Below are positions 5,738-15,610 of a DNA stretch of 15,733 nt, in pieces; the first letter of the stretch is position 1, and each line of letters opens with the position of its first letter. The stretch comes from a virus. Its lineage: Duplodnaviria; Heunggongvirae; Uroviricota; Caudoviricetes. Below the pieces are notes generated by a model. It saw only the letters and a list, made by a program, of their open reading frames with translations. It was not told the origin of the DNA and made no database searches. The stretch lies in the IMG/VR virus record IMGVR_UViG_3300046674_000485, positions 1 to 15,733 of that record. One strand, written 5' to 3'. Made by a program: the position numbers and the translations under genes.

Positions 5738-6048
5738 GCGCCATCCTTCGGCACCAGGGCGCGCAGCTCCTCGAGCTCACGCAGGACGCCCTCGAGATGC
5801 TGGCGGCGCACCTCGATCGTGGGCAGCTCCATGCTCTTGGCGTAGTCGATCGCCATGCCCAGGCCCTTGCTGCCGCCGGACTTGACCACAGCGCGCAGCA
5901 GGGTGGCCCGCTCTTCGTGCGTGATGGCCTCGCCGCGGAGGTTGCGACGGCGCAGCGCCTCGATCGAGGACAGCCGCTCCTGCTCGAGCTCGAACTGGGA
6001 CAGGCCGAACGGGTTGTCGGCGGTGATGAGGGGGTGGGAGGCGGCCAT
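5734..6048 (-). CDS. Hypothetical protein (104 aa)
   Basis: TGATG overlap at the start and ATGA at the end; coding-like codon bias. Confidence 0.75.
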   Translation of the reverse strand: MAASHPLITADNPFGLSQFELEQERLSSIEALRRRNLRGEAITHEERATLLRAVVKSGGSKGLGMAIDYAKSMELPTIEVRRQHLEGVLRELEELRALVPKDGA

Positions 6049-9347: not shown

Positions 9348-9402
9348 GCAAATTATTTTTGTTGCCTCCTTGCCACGCTGTTGGTTCTTATGCATAATCA
9401 AG
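9348..9402 (+). promoter_or_regulatory. Early promoter/operator copy 1
   Basis: AT-rich tract, TTGCCA (9370-9375), 17 bp, CATAAT (9393-9398); dyad TTGGTT-N9-AATCAA at 9381-9401. Confidence 0.8.
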
Positions 9403-9426: not shown

Positions 9427-10218
9427 ATGAAAAACATCCCCGCCCAGATCGCCAGCCTCATCGAGCGCGGCGCCCTCTTCGTCGTGAACCACAGCGGCGG
9501 CAAGGACTCCCAGGCCATGTACCTGCACCTGCGCAGCATCGTGCCGGCGGCCCAGCTGGTGATCGTCCACGCCGACCTGGGCGAGGTCGAGTGGAAGGGT
9601 GCCGTGGAGCACATCAACGACACCACCTTCGGCGAGCCGCTGCACGTGTGCCGCTCGCGCCGCGGCCTGCTCCAGATGATCGAGGAGCGCGGCATGTTCC
9701 CCTCGCCCACCCTGCGCCAGTGCACGAGCGACCTCAAGCGCGGCCCCATCGAGCGCACCATCCGCGGCATCTCGAAGGACACCGGCAAGCTGCTGATCGT
9801 GAACTGCATGGGCATGCGCGCCGAGGAGAGCTCGAGCCGCGCCAAGCTGGCCACCCTGAAGCTGTCGAACAAGAACTCGGTCGCCGGCCGCGAGTGGTAC
9901 GACTGGCTGCCGATCCATGACTGGCTCGTCGGCGACGTGTTCCTGGCCATCAAGGAAGCCGGCCAGGAGCCGCACCCGATCTACGCCAAGGGCATGAGCC
10001 GCTTCAGCTGCTGCTTCTGCGTGATGGCCAGCGAGCACGACCTCCGCACGGCGGCCACCCTGAACCCCAAGCTGTACGCCCGCTACGTCGGCCTGGAGCG
10101 CTCCACCGGCCAAGTGATGCTGATGCCCCGCAAGGGCGTGCGCCGCACCCTGGAAGAGGTCACCGGCGTCCAGGCTGACATGTCCCTGCTCGAGGACAGC
10201 GCGCTCTCTTTGGCCTGA
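9427..10218 (+). CDS. PP-loop protein of the PAPS-reductase/DndC superfamily (263 aa)
   Basis: NHSGGKDS PP-loop, VHADLG, QCTSDLKRGP, GMRAEESSSR, WLPIHDW and RFSCCFC; no C-terminal ECGLH motif. ATG 9427 follows promoter 1, so the 9304 start in the track is unlikely. Confidence 0.9.
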   Translation: MKNIPAQIASLIERGALFVVNHSGGKDSQAMYLHLRSIVPAAQLVIVHADLGEVEWKGAVEHINDTTFGEPLHVCRSRRGLLQMIEERGMFPSPTLRQCTSDLKRGPIERTIRGISKDTGKLLIVNCMGMRAEESSSRAKLATLKLSNKNSVAGREWYDWLPIHDWLVGDVFLAIKEAGQEPHPIYAKGMSRFSCCFCVMASEHDLRTAATLNPKLYARYVGLERSTGQVMLMPRKGVRRTLEEVTGVQADMSLLEDSALSLA

Positions 10219-10223
10219 GCTGC

Positions 10224-10278
10224 CAACTATTTGTTGTTTGCCTTATTGCATGTCTGTTGATTCTTGTGCATAATCAAG
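10224..10278 (+). promoter_or_regulatory. Early promoter/operator copy 2
   Basis: TTGCAT (10246-10251), 17 bp, CATAAT (10269-10274); TTGATT-N9-AATCAA at 10257-10277; T-rich upstream tract. Confidence 0.82.
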
Positions 10279-10319: not shown

Positions 10320-10625
10320 ATGTTCCACACCCCCGCCCACAAGCAGCCCGCCGCCCTGGTCGTCGCCCGCGCCTTCGCCGCGATCCCGGTCGTCGAGATC
10401 GAGAAGCGCGCCACGTTCTTCGCTGTCATGACCGACGACGTGGGCAGCTCGGCCCAGATCGCGGCGGACGGCTACACCCCGGAGCGCGGCGCCGGCGTCT
10501 GCATGACCCGCGAGGAGGCAGAGAAGCGCGGCGCAGCCTACGTGGCGCGCGGCCCGATCACCCTGCACCGCCGCACTGTCCCGCGTGCTTTCAAGATCGT
10601 CGAAGGCACGACGCCCGTGCACTGA
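10320..10625 (+). CDS. Hypothetical early protein (101 aa)
   Basis: AAGGA SD, ATG 10320, downstream of promoter 2. Confidence 0.75.
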   Translation: MFHTPAHKQPAALVVARAFAAIPVVEIEKRATFFAVMTDDVGSSAQIAADGYTPERGAGVCMTREEAEKRGAAYVARGPITLHRRTVPRAFKIVEGTTPVH

Positions 10626-10629
10626 GCCT

Positions 10630-10671
10630 GAGTCCACCGTTGAGCCGGACACGCGGCTCACCAGTGCATTC
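10630..10671 (+). repeat. Conserved intergenic stem-loop element, copy A
   Basis: GAGTcCACCGTT-[GAGCCG gacacg CGGCTC]-ACCAGTGcATTC. Confidence 0.75.
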
Positions 10672-10696
10672 CGTCCAACAACCCCAGGAGCCCAGC

Positions 10697-11107
10697 ATGC
10701 CCGTCATCAGCACCGCCAACTTCACCGTCACCCTGCCGAGCGGCCACAAGGCCGTCTACGCCATCGAGCCGGGCCACGTGGCCAAGGTCGCCGGCCCCGA
10801 TGCCAACCGCAAGGCCATCGACTACGGCACCCAGGTCGCGCACCAGCTGGGCCACAGCTGGTACAAGGCCGGCGGCTGGGACGAGATCACCGATCTGCGC
10901 CAGATCGCGGCGCTCGAGCGCTGCCCCGATGCCCAGCGCGTCGAGGACACCCACGCCGCCAACCGCGTGCGCCGCGCCAACCAGTACGGCTACGAAGCCG
11001 GCGCCGGCTGGGGCGCCTCCACGGCCCGCAACCCCTACGCCGAAGGCTGCCAGGAGGCGGCCGCCTGGGACGCCGGCTTCGCGCAGGCCGGGCGCGCGCC
11101 CCTCTGA
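10697..11107 (+). CDS. Early protein (136 aa) with C-terminal Rmf-like motif
   Basis: CCCAGGAG SD; C-terminus ANQYGYEAGAGWGASTARNPYAEGCQEAAAWDAGF. Confidence 0.8.
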   Translation: MPVISTANFTVTLPSGHKAVYAIEPGHVAKVAGPDANRKAIDYGTQVAHQLGHSWYKAGGWDEITDLRQIAALERCPDAQRVEDTHAANRVRRANQYGYEAGAGWGASTARNPYAEGCQEAAAWDAGFAQAGRAPL

Positions 11108-11111
11108 GACT

Positions 11112-11152
11112 GAGTCCACCGTTCTGCCGGACTGCGGCAGACCAGTGAATTC
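11112..11152 (+). repeat. Conserved intergenic stem-loop element, copy B
   Basis: GAGTcCACCGTT-[CTGCCG gactg CGGCAG]-ACCAGTGaATTC. Confidence 0.75.
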
Positions 11153-11177
11153 CGTTCAACCACCCAGGAGCTCGACC

Positions 11178-11609
11178 ATGACTGTCACCTGCGCCCTCGA
11201 CAACCCCACCCGGCAGCCCGGCGCCCTGGCGCTCGAGGTCCGCTCCATGAAGCTGGCAGCCCAGGAGCGCGGCGCCATCGGCCGCATCTTCGGCGGCCTG
11301 CTGGTCGAGGCCTGCCAGCGCGACAGCGGCCGCGTGACCTGGGCGGTCGAAGGCAAGCGCGCCTCCATGCACGACGCCGAGCAGGCCGTCATCAACCACA
11401 TGACCACCTTCCGCGCGTTCAAGGACGTCGCCCTGGGCGAGCGCTTCGTCTTCGCCGAGCAGACCGACTTCTCGCTGGGCAAGACCTTCGTCAAGGTCGG
11501 CCCGCGCAGCTACGAGGAGGCGATCCACGGCATGGCCTCTGTGGCCGCCGGCCGGTTCATCCGCCGCCATCAGGTCGGCACCATCAGCATCGCCACCCTC
11601 CCCGTCTGA
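11178..11609 (+). CDS. Hypothetical early protein (143 aa)
   Basis: CCCAGGAG SD, ATG 11178; high GC3. Confidence 0.8.
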   Translation: MTVTCALDNPTRQPGALALEVRSMKLAAQERGAIGRIFGGLLVEACQRDSGRVTWAVEGKRASMHDAEQAVINHMTTFRAFKDVALGERFVFAEQTDFSLGKTFVKVGPRSYEEAIHGMASVAAGRFIRRHQVGTISIATLPV

Positions 11610-11632
11610 CCCATCAACCCCAGGAGCTCACC

Positions 11633-12088
11633 ATGGCAATCTTCCACCTGTTCACCGTCCACCTCGATGAATACGCGGACCACGAAGTACCGCAGGTTCG
11701 CATCGGCGACTACATCGTCCAGGCCAAGAGCATGGCTGCAGCAGTCACCGAGCTCCGCTTCGACTACGGCAAGGTCGACACGGCCAGCGAGATCTGGGGC
11801 TACCGCCGCACGAGCGCCACCTCGGTCCTGGCGTCGCCCAGCAACGTGCGCGACCGCCGCGAGAGCCTGCACCAGCACCAGCACTGGGCCCGCGTCCAGG
11901 GCGTCTACAAGCTGGTCCACCAGGGTGCGAAGAGCCTCGACCAGCTGAAGGACGAGCACTTCGCCAAGCGCTACCCGCAGCACGCCGCCGCCGACCGCGC
12001 CATTGCCGCCGGCGCCACCCCTGGCGACTCGGTGCCGGGCGTCAGCACTCGCGACCTCGTCGAGGCCCAGGCCAGGGCCCGCGCCTGA
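11633..12088 (+). CDS. Hypothetical early protein (151 aa)
   Basis: CCCCAGGAG SD; high GC3. Confidence 0.8.
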   Translation: MAIFHLFTVHLDEYADHEVPQVRIGDYIVQAKSMAAAVTELRFDYGKVDTASEIWGYRRTSATSVLASPSNVRDRRESLHQHQHWARVQGVYKLVHQGAKSLDQLKDEHFAKRYPQHAAADRAIAAGATPGDSVPGVSTRDLVEAQARARA

Positions 12089-12112
12089 TCCACCCACCCC
12101 AGGAGTCCAGCC

Positions 12113-12619
12113 ATGACCGCCACCCACGCCGACTGCCCGCAGTGCGACCCGCTCCACCCGGAGCTGGACGAGAGCGGCCGCGCCTACACCTGCTACTTCT
12201 GCTGCGACACCGGCCGCGTCGATGCCGCCGTGGCTGCCGCCTGCCACCGCGCCCAGGACGATGAGCTCGAGCGGTTCCGCCCGGCCATCCTGGGCGTCTT
12301 CCCGAAGCGCGCGCCGGCCACGTACAGCTCCGACGGCGAGCGCTGCGAGGCTGACGCCTACGACGGCCTGGAGCCCGTGATCTGCTCCTCCTGCGACGGC
12401 CAAGGCCGCACCCAGCCCGTCGGCCCCCAGGACGAGACGCAGCGCTGCTCCGCCTGCCGCGGCGATGGCGTCACCCACGAGCCGATCCAGTACCAGCCGG
12501 GCCACCGCCTCTTCACCGGCCTGGGCGAGATCGAGCGCGCCATCCAGGCTGCCCGGTACGTCGCGATCCAGGCCGCCCGCCGTCAGGCGACCGAAGACCT
12601 CGACGAGATCCCGTTCTAA
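12113..12619 (+). CDS. Zinc-finger protein (168 aa) with DnaJ-type CxxCxGxG repeats and an acidic DEIPF tail
   Basis: CPQC...CYFCCDTG and CSSCDGQG...CSACRGDG; ends EDLDEIPF; CCCCAGGAG SD. Confidence 0.82.
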   Translation: MTATHADCPQCDPLHPELDESGRAYTCYFCCDTGRVDAAVAAACHRAQDDELERFRPAILGVFPKRAPATYSSDGERCEADAYDGLEPVICSSCDGQGRTQPVGPQDETQRCSACRGDGVTHEPIQYQPGHRLFTGLGEIERAIQAARYVAIQAARRQATEDLDEIPF

Positions 12620-12671
12620 CTTTTTTTTGTTGGCGCTGTTGCTCCGGTGTTGATTCTTGTGCATAATCAAG
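12617..12671 (+). promoter_or_regulatory. Early promoter/operator copy 3
   Basis: T8 tract, TTGCTC (12639-12644), 17 bp, CATAAT (12662-12667); TTGATT-N9-AATCAA at 12650-12670. Confidence 0.82.
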
Positions 12672-12697
12672 GCTCACCTCAACAACCGGAGATCAGC

Positions 12698-12940
12698 ATG
12701 GCAAGAAAGACCGACGACGAGCTGGCAGTGGGCCGCGAGATCCGCCGCGGCAAGGCCGAGGCCCGCGCCGTCGACAAGCTGGATGCCCAGCTCGACGCGG
12801 CCGACGCCCTCATCGGCAAGCTGGTGCGCGAGGGCCGCACGGTCCTCTACATCAACCTGCTGCCCCTGCACCGCGGCAAGACCCTCGAGGGCTCGCGCCA
12901 GGAGCTCATCTCCTACCTGATCCGCAACCGCTACATCTGA
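12698..12940 (+). CDS. Hypothetical early protein (80 aa)
   Basis: GGAG SD, ATG 12698, after promoter 3. Confidence 0.8.
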   Translation: MARKTDDELAVGREIRRGKAEARAVDKLDAQLDAADALIGKLVREGRTVLYINLLPLHRGKTLEGSRQELISYLIRNRYI

Positions 12941-12959
12941 CCACCCCAGGAGCCCGCCC

Positions 12960-13307
12960 ATGACCACGCCCTACGCCCTCTCGCTGCGCAAGACCAGCAA
13001 GTACGTCGACAGCTACCGCCACCTCGACCGCGAGGAGTTCGTCTGCAGCGTCAAGCTGACCACGCCGACCATGCTGCGCGCGCCAGAGGACTTCGACGAC
13101 GGCGGCCAGTACGTGCGCTTCGGCCGCATCCCCGCAGGCGCGAGCCGCAAGGACCGCCGCGACATCGTCCAGGCCGCCAGGGACACGTTCTCTCACTGGG
13201 GCTGCTCCCACCAGCACGACTGCTGCGGCTGCCAGCTGGTGCGCGCCGATGCCACGCTGCGCGGCCGCACGCTGCGCATCACCACAAGCGTCAGCTTCAA
13301 CTACTAG
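12960..13307 (+). CDS. Hypothetical protein (115 aa) with CSHQHDCCGC metal-binding-like motif
   Basis: CCCCAGGAG SD; Cys/His cluster at 13203-13232. Confidence 0.8.
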   Translation: MTTPYALSLRKTSKYVDSYRHLDREEFVCSVKLTTPTMLRAPEDFDDGGQYVRFGRIPAGASRKDRRDIVQAARDTFSHWGCSHQHDCCGCQLVRADATLRGRTLRITTSVSFNY

Positions 13308-13326
13308 CCCGCCCAGGAAGGCCACC

Positions 13327-13575
13327 ATGATCAAGTCGAAGACCGCCCTGATCGCCGCCATGAAGGCGCGCCCCGGCTGCCGGATCTGCGGGCACATGGG
13401 CGCCCGTCCGGCGGCGCCCTGGCGCTACGAGCTGCAGGCCGCGGACGGCGCCCTGGTCGACCGCGTGTCCAGCGTGGCCGTCGATGCGATGCACAAGGCC
13501 GACAGCCTCTACACCGTGCACTCGAGCTGGCAGTACGGCGTCTACCGCCTGCGCGCCCGCGTCCGCAACGCCTGA
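13327..13575 (+). CDS. Hypothetical early protein (82 aa)
   Basis: AGGAAGG SD, ATG 13327. Confidence 0.7.
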   Translation: MIKSKTALIAAMKARPGCRICGHMGARPAAPWRYELQAADGALVDRVSSVAVDAMHKADSLYTVHSSWQYGVYRLRARVRNA

Positions 13576-13591
13576 TCCAAAGGAGATCCAC

Positions 13592-13780
13592 GTGTCCATG
13601 TCCCTACCGTCGGCCGCCATCAGGTCGATCAACAACAACCGGGCCCGGCAGCGCGCGAGCGCTGTCTCGCAGCGCATCAGCGAGGTCTCGCGGATCGCCG
13701 GCGAGCTCGTGGCTAGCACGCCCGGCCTCTCGCGGACGGAGGCCCTGCGGGTCGCCGAGCGATTCATCCCCCACGCCTGA
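13592..13780 (+). CDS. Small basic hypothetical protein (about 62 aa)
   Basis: AGGAG SD 6 nt before GTG 13592 (alternative ATG 13598). Confidence 0.65.
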   Translation: MSMSLPSAAIRSINNNRARQRASAVSQRISEVSRIAGELVASTPGLSRTEALRVAERFIPHA

Positions 13781-13785
13781 CTGCC

Positions 13786-13980
13786 ATGGCAACCCTCAAG
13801 CGCAAGACCCCCGCCCAGGCCAAGGCCCTGAAGGCCTACGAGGCTGCCGAGCGCCAGTACGACCGCTACATGGGCAGCGTGTTCGTCACGACTGTCGGCC
13901 AGCGCCAGGAGGAGGCCAAGGTCACGGCCGCCTACGAGGCCTGCAAGGCCCTGGGCATGACCCACGAGCACGGCCTCTGA
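13786..13980 (+). CDS. Small hypothetical protein (64 aa)
   Basis: ATG 5 nt after the previous stop; high GC3. Confidence 0.7.
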   Translation: MATLKRKTPAQAKALKAYEAAERQYDRYMGSVFVTTVGQRQEEAKVTAAYEACKALGMTHEHGL

Positions 13981-14023
13981 GCCGCAAAACCAGGCTCTAA
14001 TTCGGCGATGCGCTTGGCGCGTC

Positions 14024-14078
14024 AACAAATTTGTTGTTGACCCTATTGCATCTTGGTTGGTTCTTGTGCACAATCAAG
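14024..14078 (+). promoter_or_regulatory. Early promoter/operator copy 4
   Basis: TTGCAT (14046-14051), 17 bp, CACAAT (14069-14074); TTGGTT-N9-AATCAA at 14057-14077. Confidence 0.78.
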
Positions 14079-14101
14079 TCTCAGCAACACAGGAGCAGCA
14101 G

Positions 14102-14302
14102 ATGAACAAGCCCACCGTCTCGATGATCGCCGCAGTTCGCGCGGTCGCCCCGCAAGAGCGCCTCGCCGCTGCCAAGCTGGCCGAGGTCACCTTCTTCGCC
14201 GCCATCGCGCGCTTCACGATGTTCGGCGACTTCGACGCCGCCACCAACCGCGAGATGGCCGGCGACATGGCCGCCGCCGAGGTCTCCTTCCACTTCGCCT
14301 GA
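14102..14302 (+). CDS. Small hypothetical protein (66 aa)
   Basis: AGGAG SD, ATG 14102, after promoter 4. Confidence 0.72.
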   Translation: MNKPTVSMIAAVRAVAPQERLAAAKLAEVTFFAAIARFTMFGDFDAATNREMAGDMAAAEVSFHFA

Positions 14303-14318
14303 GCCCAGGATCCACCCC

Positions 14319-15269
14319 ATGACCATCGAGCGCATTCAGAAGTACGAAGCCCGGGCCCGCGAGCTGTTCGCCGCCGGCTTCACCACGAAGTCCAGCCAGA
14401 AGGACGCCCGCGAAGCCGCGAGCCGCGCCTACAGCGACGTGCGCCGGGCGATCTTGGACGCCTGCCTCGCCGAGGACCGCGGCGCGAAGTCCGATGCGGT
14501 CTACTGGGGCATGCCCGACTACCCGCACCTGTGGAAGGCAAAGCACGCCCAGCTCGTGCGCGACAACATGCCCGCGGCTGCCGGCTGGATCGAGCACGCC
14601 GACCGCCTCGCCATCCTGACGGCTGAGATCAAGGCCGCGCCCGTCGTGCCGAAGCCGCCGAAGAAGCTCAACGATGGCGGCCTGCCAATCACCCTGTCGG
14701 ACGCCTTCAACCCCGAGCTCAAGGCTCAGTTCCTGGCCCAGGCGCCAGAGATCAAGGCGAGCTACATCGCCGACGTGCGCCGCGCCGGAGCTCGCATGGT
14801 CGAAACCTTCGGCCCGCGGGTGCCCGCCAGCATCAGCGACGAGCAGATCAAGGCGCTCAAGCTGTCGAAGTTCTTCGTTGCCGACCACGACCTCTTCCGC
14901 CATCACTGCAACGTCGTGCAGCCGCTCATCTCTGGCGCCCGCTGGCTCGAGCTGGACGAGGCGCGCCTCGAGGAGCAGGCCGAGCGCTACTCGATCCTCG
15001 TCGCCCTGCAATGGTTCTACAAGGTCAACGGCAAGCTGGGCCAGCTGGCCGAGGCGACCCTGCACCGCGACCAGGGCGGCTACGTCCTCGTGAGCGGCGT
15101 GAAGGCCGACGGCTCGAAGGTCAACATGCGTCAGCAGCGCGTCATGAAGTGGGCACCCGTGGCCGGCGGGTACTTCAACCAGTTCCCTAGCCACCTCTAT
15201 GTGGACGGGAAGTTCCACACCGCCCTCGAGTACGTCGACCGCTTCGCCGACGCCACCGCCGAAGAATGA
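14319..15269 (+). CDS. Hypothetical early protein (316 aa), apparently two domains
   Basis: Long ORF with high GC3; helical N-terminal half ending AEIKAAPVVPKPPKK, then a beta-rich C-terminal half (...YFNQFPSHLYVDGK). Confidence 0.85.
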   Translation: MTIERIQKYEARARELFAAGFTTKSSQKDAREAASRAYSDVRRAILDACLAEDRGAKSDAVYWGMPDYPHLWKAKHAQLVRDNMPAAAGWIEHADRLAILTAEIKAAPVVPKPPKKLNDGGLPITLSDAFNPELKAQFLAQAPEIKASYIADVRRAGARMVETFGPRVPASISDEQIKALKLSKFFVADHDLFRHHCNVVQPLISGARWLELDEARLEEQAERYSILVALQWFYKVNGKLGQLAEATLHRDQGGYVLVSGVKADGSKVNMRQQRVMKWAPVAGGYFNQFPSHLYVDGKFHTALEYVDRFADATAEE

Positions 15270-15311
15270 TCAACCCCGCCCGGCCGCCGCGCCGGGCACC
15301 CTGGAGAAACC

Positions 15312-15542
15312 ATGTCCCTGTCCAAGACCGAAGAGCGGGTGATCCGCGAGATCATCGCCCGCCTGGAATGCCAGCCCAAGAGCGTCAATGGCGAGCCCTT
15401 CCCGCGCGAATCCGACGAGGTGCGCGCCGCCCTGACCGGCAGCCACGCAAAGATCTATCTCGACACCTGGGTGATCGCCCCCATGAAGCTGCTGCTGCCC
15501 GAGAGCCGCAACCCCAGCCTCGCCGAGCGCCTCGCGCGCTGA
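15312..15542 (+). CDS. Hypothetical protein (76 aa)
   Basis: GGAG SD preceded by a 7-bp GC hairpin (GCCCGGC/GCCGGGC). Confidence 0.75.
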   Translation: MSLSKTEERVIREIIARLECQPKSVNGEPFPRESDEVRAALTGSHAKIYLDTWVIAPMKLLLPESRNPSLAERLAR

Positions 15543-15545
15543 CTC

Positions 15546-15591
15546 GAGTGACACCGCCATGCGCAGCTGGTCTGCGCATGCCAGTGCATTC
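15546..15591 (+). repeat. Conserved intergenic stem-loop element, copy C
   Basis: GAGTGaCACCGC-[CATGCGCAG ctggt CTGCGCATG]-CCAGTGCATTC. Confidence 0.7.
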
Positions 15592-15610
15592 AACCACCCC
15601 AGGAGCTCAC

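Follow-up and report, generated by a model that had tools for sequence, protein, structure and literature searches.

The window analysed here is the first 15.7 kb (15,733 nucleotides) of a complete 85.6-kb podophage virus record with terminal repeats and a GC content of 67% (IMG/VR record IMGVR_UViG_3300046674_000485). Terminase and portal genes are found on its minus strand, and small early genes follow host-type promoter boxes on its plus strand. Among these early genes, an earlier note on this DNA, made without database searches, had pointed out a stem–loop repeated three times, with fixed mismatches and an apical helix that changes in sequence and stays paired. All three copies are present, each between a stop codon and the Shine–Dalgarno sequence (SD) of the next gene (Table 1); the upstream stop lies 5–6 nt ahead of the helix, and the SD is outside the stem.

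Copy 1 consists of a basal arm GAGU/AUUC (pairs G-C, A-U, G-U, and U-A), a C-C mismatch, CAC/GUG, a C-A mismatch, a G-C pair, and a U-C mismatch, topped by an apical helix of 7 bp and a loop of 6 nt. Copy 2 has the same core, except that C-A replaces C-C, and its 7-bp apical helix carries two-sided changes below a 5-nt loop. In copy 3, GAGUG/CAUUC and a bulged A lead to CAC/GUG, C-A, G-C, C-C, a 9-bp apical helix, and a 5-nt loop. Each copy folds as had been described, except that in copies 1 and 2 the apical helix is longer by one U-A pair than the one quoted. The shared arms GAGU/AUUC and CAC/GUG are also present but are separated by a C-C or C-A mismatch in copies 1 and 2 and by a G-C pair plus a bulged A in copy 3. 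The pattern CACCG-N12-40-CCAGTGNATTC has 3 matches in the window against 0.01 expected, a number reached in 0 of 200 shuffles, and RNA folding gave z = −3.7, −3.3, and −3.2 for copies 1, 2, and 3, respectively. No fourth copy was found when the 85.6-kb genome was searched by pattern and covariance model. A direct repeat, CTGAG-N-CTGAG, lies ahead of copies 1 and 2 (10620–10634 and 11102–11116) and creates two in-frame TGA codons 6 nt apart; the second of these is at 10629–10631 in copy 1, where it supplies the first helix bases, and at 11111–11113 in copy 2, and in many homologs it is the second TGA of such a pair that is the real stop. Read-through of the stop codon at copies 1 and 2 was considered and rejected, since 68 and 67 nt, respectively, separate the helix-base TGA from the next ATG, with which it is out of frame.

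The three copies are genuine hairpins of RNA and belong to an uncatalogued family common to many unrelated Burkholderiales phages. A covariance model trained on seven copies, copy 3 not among them, recovered that copy, and the search for homologs proposed in the earlier note brought up ∼30 further viral contigs with the same fold, among lambdoid Burkholderia prophages, phiKMV-like phages, and terminase-related phages. The first unrelated match to the strict pattern was a phiKMV-like contig of the T7 supergroup (L021; nearest Curvibacter phage P26059B) with several hairpins in its early region, and the terminase relatives G003 and G014 were found to carry a variant with G-G under C-A. In two further scans, only letters of the core and the apical part were fixed and the basal arm was left unconstrained; these gave 40 stretches. 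The homolog set comprises 28 distinct stretches with an apical helix of at least 6 bp, a property not demanded by the pattern; lambdoid prophages akin to Burkholderia phages are included, and the member from L522 is probably a chance match. No Rfam 15 family came near threshold at the hairpins, the only matches being mir-4079 in the window, by chance, and tRNAs in the rest of the genome. The description of the element as undescribed thus holds for the sequence family, which has no Rfam match, but not for the kind of element.

An alignment of 24 rows has 75.6% of its cells paired and 12 pairs with two-sided changes, and its covariation score, which may be inflated by related rows, was reached by 0 of 500 shuffles; these figures support the selection on structure that had been proposed from compensatory change. 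The mismatches, said to be invariant, are strongly conserved across the family without being absolute: C-A is replaced by a C-G pair in L536 and by U-A in L034:4690, and Y-C by U-G in G003:4925–4974. Of the 24 aligned homologs, 11 have C-G under C-A and 13 have G-G there. A second model detects an array of eight copies, one per gene, in L034 (IMGVR_UViG_3300046018_000224), which was outside its training set. These eight hairpins (L034:4690–7959) flank a homolog, 75% identical, of the window gene at 9427–10218, and the first of them, a long stem with almost perfect pairing, resembles a canonical double-cut RNase III site and has U-A at position 1 of the distal box (db1).

The family model has no match in most complete terminase relatives (G009, G011, G015, G020, G023, G027, and G028) or in a Massilia phage-plasmid, so the element is patchy even among kin. 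Family matches were likewise absent from phiKMV, Paku, RS-PII-1, Prado, T7, lambda, and HK022, and a single weak look-alike, which shares the C-A, was seen in Curvibacter phage P26059B. Searches by blastn with copy 1 and the L499 element against cultured phages gave nothing meaningful, and strict-pattern scans of metagenome and genome collections returned almost solely chance matches that have no apical helix. Two matches were found in 141 Burkholderiales genomes, for which only 44 candidates were scored per genome, a result that says little on absence from host chromosomes. Two unrelated viral contigs (L010:928–976 and L032:2263–2310) share another conserved element (GAGT...CACCG.GG...CCCCAGTGCATTCCCTT.ACTCCGT) that matches the pattern and seems to be a different motif.

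Apical helices of the 28 homologs contain 15 G-U pairs against 0 C-A on the sense strand, and 10 of the 28 have loops of the form cUNCGg (cUUCGg, cUCCGg, or cUACGg). Because the wobbles and UNCG loops are on the sense strand, the element, to judge by its sequence, acts as sense-strand RNA and not as single-stranded DNA (ssDNA).

The hairpins are read here, with about an even chance that this is right, as one-sided RNase III signals in the early mRNA, that is, cut-and-protect half-sites at which cutting is predicted. The numbering of uR1.1, in which A9:U30 is position 2 of the proximal box (pb2) and U12:G27 and C13:G26 form the middle box (PMC1540722), maps onto the sequence of T7 R1.1, which is cut at 5887 (PMC8708148). 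In the 16S stem of E. coli, where the cuts are at +33 and −115, the sequence AGTG-CT-CAC-ACA places AGTG twelve bases ahead of the cut and opposite CAC, and a 16S stem of Undibacterium shares this CAC/AGTG core and its register. Aligned in this way, copies 1–3 of the window have AGTG-CA-TTC-CGT, AGTG-AA-TTC-CGT, and AGTG-CA-TTC-AAC, respectively. For T7 R0.3, R0.5, R1, and R1.3, the cut positions reportedly given by Dunn and Studier in 1983 are consistent with the sequence.

RNase III makes direct contacts through Q157 at pb2 and H27 at position J (PMC6212723), and both A-U at position D (pb2) and G at J are correct in all three window copies. Position B (pb4) is U-C, U-C, and C-A in copies 1–3, unpaired like the U-C of R1.1, and the C-A mismatch singled out in the earlier note would be db1 in the proposed register. 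Across the 28 homologs, with the basal arm unconstrained, positions F, E, D, C, and B are paired in 23, 22, 25, 26, and 22, and pairing past B drops to 11, 7, and 5. A G-C pair at B, which is a catalytic antideterminant, occurs in none of the 28, and D is A-U or U-A in 20, compensatory U-A included. Between the cut and the far end of the distal box, a T7-type site needs 11 or more stacked positions, and the family supplies them: B to L are paired bar two single mismatches, and 6–12 further pairs follow. As at T7-type sites, the hairpins are intercistronic and on the sense strand of a polycistronic early transcript, and the arrays in the early region of the phiKMV-like contig and in L034 support a T7-like context. 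RNase III is encoded by all five Burkholderiales genomes checked. Within each hairpin, a weight matrix built from T7 sites only picks the proposed register, ∼2.3 S.D. over the genome mean, although not as the top-ranked stretch.

In the mechanism envisaged, host RNase III would dock on an 11-position helix that comprises the proximal, middle, and distal boxes, with the basal pair at its foot and the C-A/G-C block at its top, and nick the 3′ strand 3 nt below AUUC (Table 1). The upstream message would end in a protective hairpin and the downstream message would begin 16–22 nt ahead of the AUG with its SD free, the early polycistronic transcript being converted into separately stable messages, as in T7. 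The C-A at db1 would probably give a local distortion of the helix, the role of the U-G wobble in T7 R1.1. The apical helix may vary in sequence and length because it would be needed only to extend and close the stem. The 3′ nick would be the only plausible cut, because in many homologs 5′-side cutting would hit the RNA immediately ahead of the stop codon, and a hairpin-capped message is a stabilizing outcome of single-strand cuts (PMC3867540). As the carriers share no phage gene, the partner would be a host factor, most likely RNase III.

Like the hairpins described here, T7 R0.3, R0.5, R1, R1.1, and R1.3 are intercistronic hairpins in an early transcript of the host polymerase, and they share with the family a 3′ arm of the form (A/G)GUG-NN-YUY-NNN ahead of the cut, A-U at pb2, a weak or unpaired pb4, and an SD past the cut. 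The T7 sites show a lower helix under an internal loop that harbors the cut, U-A at db1, an AAGG/CCUU proximal box, and short apical caps, whereas the family has C-A at db1, often G-G at db2, U-C or C-C above, a 6–12-bp apical helix, and no lower helix. Of the three hypotheses offered in the earlier note, T7-like RNase III processing sites are the best-supported reading, but as half-sites only because the lower helix is lacking, and a binding site for a translational regulator is a possible role; the family is not filed as a member of the T7 sites and most probably works like one half of them. A single set of proximal and distal boxes on an 11-position helix, with no full second half, suffices for cutting in uR1.1 (Pertzev and Nicholson 2006), and pairs added above its distal box leave the cut site unmoved (PMC1540722). 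uR1.1 differs in being artificial, with a fully paired distal box, weak binding, and 5′-side cleavage. The 16S rRNA processing stem (E. coli rrnH; Undibacterium) has the CAC/(A)GUG core in a register identical relative to the +33 cut, and that of E. coli also has a mismatch just past the distal box, but it is a long two-sided duplex, cut on both strands, with U-A in place of C-A and another proximal box.

A number of observations weigh against cleavage by RNase III. A lower helix, which the five T7 sites have, was not seen (flank duplex −5.68 versus −5.94 kcal/mol for a swapped-flank null), and E. coli targets that are double-cut in vivo are ∼90% paired at A/A′. The distal box is C-A at db1 and C-G (window) or G-G at db2, against an E. 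coli optimum of U-A/U-G; C-G at db2 also occurs in T7 R0.5 and R1.3. Every substitution in the distal box of uR1.1 lowered cleavage at least ∼5-fold, and the distal box may differ among RNase III orthologs (PMC1540722). Position D is G-C in 5 and mismatched in 3 of the 28 homologs. The upstream TGA or TAA occupies positions 7–9 in ∼15 homologs, and much of the U at B and the A at D can therefore be explained without the enzyme, although members with T-G-T at positions 7–9 keep U-A at both B and D, which suggests that the stop codon is not the whole explanation. The T7-only weight matrix ranks many other stretches higher and prefers the minus strand of copies 1 and 2. Finally, the family model finds no T7, lambda, HK022, or rRNA stem, and the homologs are not independent of each other.

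The family stands out by its lack of a lower helix, its C-A distal box, its anchoring to stop codons, and its spread over three phage types. If the half-site reading is right, it would constitute a natural family of RNase III half-site substrates with a C-A distal box, would reveal how Burkholderiales RNase III reads its targets, and would mean that a single portable processing signal is common to lambdoid, T7-supergroup, and Bcep22-like phages. The predicted cut positions are exact and cheap to test, and cultured Burkholderia carry members of the family in their prophages. That RNase III punctuates the early mRNA of phages has been known in principle since T7, and the gain would therefore be an annotatable motif rather than a new mechanism.

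The main rival, possible rather than probable, is an uncut mRNA structure anchored to the stop codon, acting as an insulator against scanning re-initiation in the manner of a ribosome termination structure (RTS), as a block to exonucleases that attack from the 3′ end, or as both. The helix starts no more than 6 nt from the upstream stop in most members, and exactly at the stop in ∼15 and in the majority of L034 copies. The stem never includes the SD, and there is no lower helix. RTSs are stable structures directly after stops, enriched at intergenic distances of at least 25 nt (Chemla et al. 2020, PMC7518266), and the window copies are stable folds in such a position. However, RTSs have no conserved sequence or mismatch pattern, being defined by stability alone, and they are depleted inside operons (PMC7518266). 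An insulator would leave unexplained a conserved mismatch block that weakens the stem and would not account for the missing G-C at B or for the core identity with rRNA processing stems.

Weaker than the insulator, and judged unlikely, is a role in which the (C/G)-G, C-A, G-C, Y-C block docks some other host factor, whether an RNA-binding protein, an RNase III that does not cleave, or RNA polymerase as at HK022 put sites, and so tunes translation, stability, or read-through. That unrelated phage types carry the block speaks for a host partner here as well, and conservation is higher in the distal block than in the basal arm, a difference partly forced by the search patterns. Lambdoid members lie in the left early operon ∼45–60 nt above boxA, and the copy at G003:4925–4974 abuts an intrinsic terminator. 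Against this, boxA follows a copy in only 2 of 31 cases and a terminator lies within 80 nt in 1 of 31, which is the background rate. The window copies have no boxA, and none occurs on the sense strand of the genome, whose early units are short and have promoters of their own; for put or nut sites, the family model has no match in HK022 or lambda, and in some members the mismatches are replaced by pairs. An intrinsic terminator is not indicated either, a U-tract right after the stem being found in 0 of 3 window copies and 2 of 31 overall, and no mimicry of the host pnp leader was found with two leaders compared in the right orientation. In the lambdoid Burkholderia-type prophages, boxA (GTTCTTTAACAA) occurs near L499:2398–2425 (minus), L496:5731–5758, and L498:520–547, and a small GAAG-loop hairpin precedes it, giving the boxB–boxA order of rrn operons.

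Rather improbable, too, is a portable stop-anchored RNA module of Burkholderiales phages in which either the mismatch block would be read by a host factor other than a cleaving RNase III or access of RNase III would be coupled to ribosome termination, the ribosome melting the basal arm so that processing would depend on upstream translation.

A folded ssDNA recombination site for single-gene cassettes, of attC or HUH type, had been the third hypothesis of the earlier note and is now largely refuted, with very little probability left to it. Two copies do often flank one gene (window 10697–11107; G069/G072; L034), as integron attC sites are imperfect palindromes between single genes, and DNA folding favors the minus strand (−12.1, −12.3, and −17.9 versus −7.8, −8.6, and −12.2 kcal/mol), which folds slightly better because C-A reads T-G there. 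The G-U wobbles and UNCG loops are, however, RNA-specific signatures restricted to the sense strand. The family has neither the R″/R′ boxes in attC order nor the pattern of extrahelical bases: RYYYAAC ... GTTRRRY is not found in that order, the boxes are unpaired, and AAC is outside the stem and after GTT. No integrase accompanies it, the complete genome having no match to tyrosine recombinase (PF00589) or Y1 transposase (PF01797). Examination of neighboring genes gave no sign of the element moving with a gene: a homolog of gene 13786–13980 is followed by the element in G003 and not in the window, and none of 41 homologs of gene 9427–10218 has a strict copy adjoining it. Shuffling may still use the repeats as passive homology. 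Self-cleavage as a small RNA, or cutting by a phage ribozyme that acts in trans, would suit a fixed mismatch block in a simple hairpin and one-per-gene arrays but is extremely improbable, as the window and the rest of the genome contain no Rfam ribozyme, only tRNAs, and a lone 42-nt hairpin has no pseudoknot or junction of the known classes.

The early promoter box TTCTTGTGCATAATCAAG has seven copies genome-wide, every one on the plus strand (Table 1), and by their consensus the early operons that hold the three hairpins are inferred to be driven by sigma70. CCCAGGAG is the ordinary SD of this phage and is also found at hairpin-free genes (11619, 12098, and 12945).

Table 1. Hairpins, predicted cuts, and neighboring features (window coordinates unless stated otherwise)
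Feature	Position	Strand	Basis or remark
Hairpin copy 1	10629..10672	+	Folding; covariance model R3, E=1.7e-11 (training member)
Hairpin copy 2	11111..11153	+	Folding, pattern, covariance model
Hairpin copy 3	15545..15592	+	Found by both covariance models untrained, E=0.001
Predicted 3′-side cut, copy 1	10674..10675	+	Inferred from T7 R1.1/16S register; 22-nt leader to ATG 10697
Predicted 3′-side cut, copy 2	11155..11156	+	Same register; 22-nt leader to ATG 11178
Predicted 3′-side cut, copy 3	15594..15595	+	Same register; 16-nt leader to ATG 15611
Early promoter boxes, all	Window 9385-9402, 10261-10278, 12654-12671, 14061-14078; G000 (this genome) 16428, 17498, 23041	+	Repeat scan
Early promoter box (TGCATAAT, -10-like), heads unit with copies 1 and 2	10261..10278	+	Function inferred from consensus
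Early promoter box, heads unit with copy 3	14061..14078	+	Repeat scan
101-aa gene, upstream of copy 1	10320..10625	+	No PHROG family
136-aa gene, function unknown, between copies 1 and 2	10697..11107	+	Open reading frame and PHROG search
143-aa gene, downstream of copy 2	11178..11609	+	No PHROG family
76-aa gene, upstream of copy 3	15312..15542	+	phrog_34903, unknown function
SD CCCAGGAG of 136-aa gene, outside hairpin	10683..10690	+	
SD of 143-aa gene, outside hairpin	11163..11170	+	
SD of 70-aa gene (start 15611), outside hairpin	15598..15605	+	

The closest named relative of the genome is an 87-kb plasmid of Massilia violaceinigra, on account of which the phage probably has a host within the Burkholderiales. 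Its terminase (NZ_CP024609.1:6953–8377) is 63% identical to that of the window, and the plasmid, which also has ParA/ParB and a repressor pair, is likely a phage-plasmid relative without the hairpin. The first early gene of the window (9427–10218) encodes a PAPS-reductase-like protein (phrog_424, E=4e-39) and, with 38 relatives in diverse viral contigs, is read as a mobile accessory gene. At 12113–12619, a Cys-rich protein is encoded whose C-terminal EDLDEIPF resembles the acidic tail of SSB; its PHROG matches are weak only.

Further repeats were seen beside some homologs. A second intergenic module (CCCGGAGGCACCGGG ... CCAGGCGTTGCGCCTGG, then an SD) occurs twice on the minus strand of L473 (∼1210–1260 and ∼1560–1610; G041), once right after a family hairpin, and a similar module is present in L509. 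In G003, one family copy is followed by a tandem GTTTTTTAT repeat (L445:7010–7070, minus) ahead of the SD.

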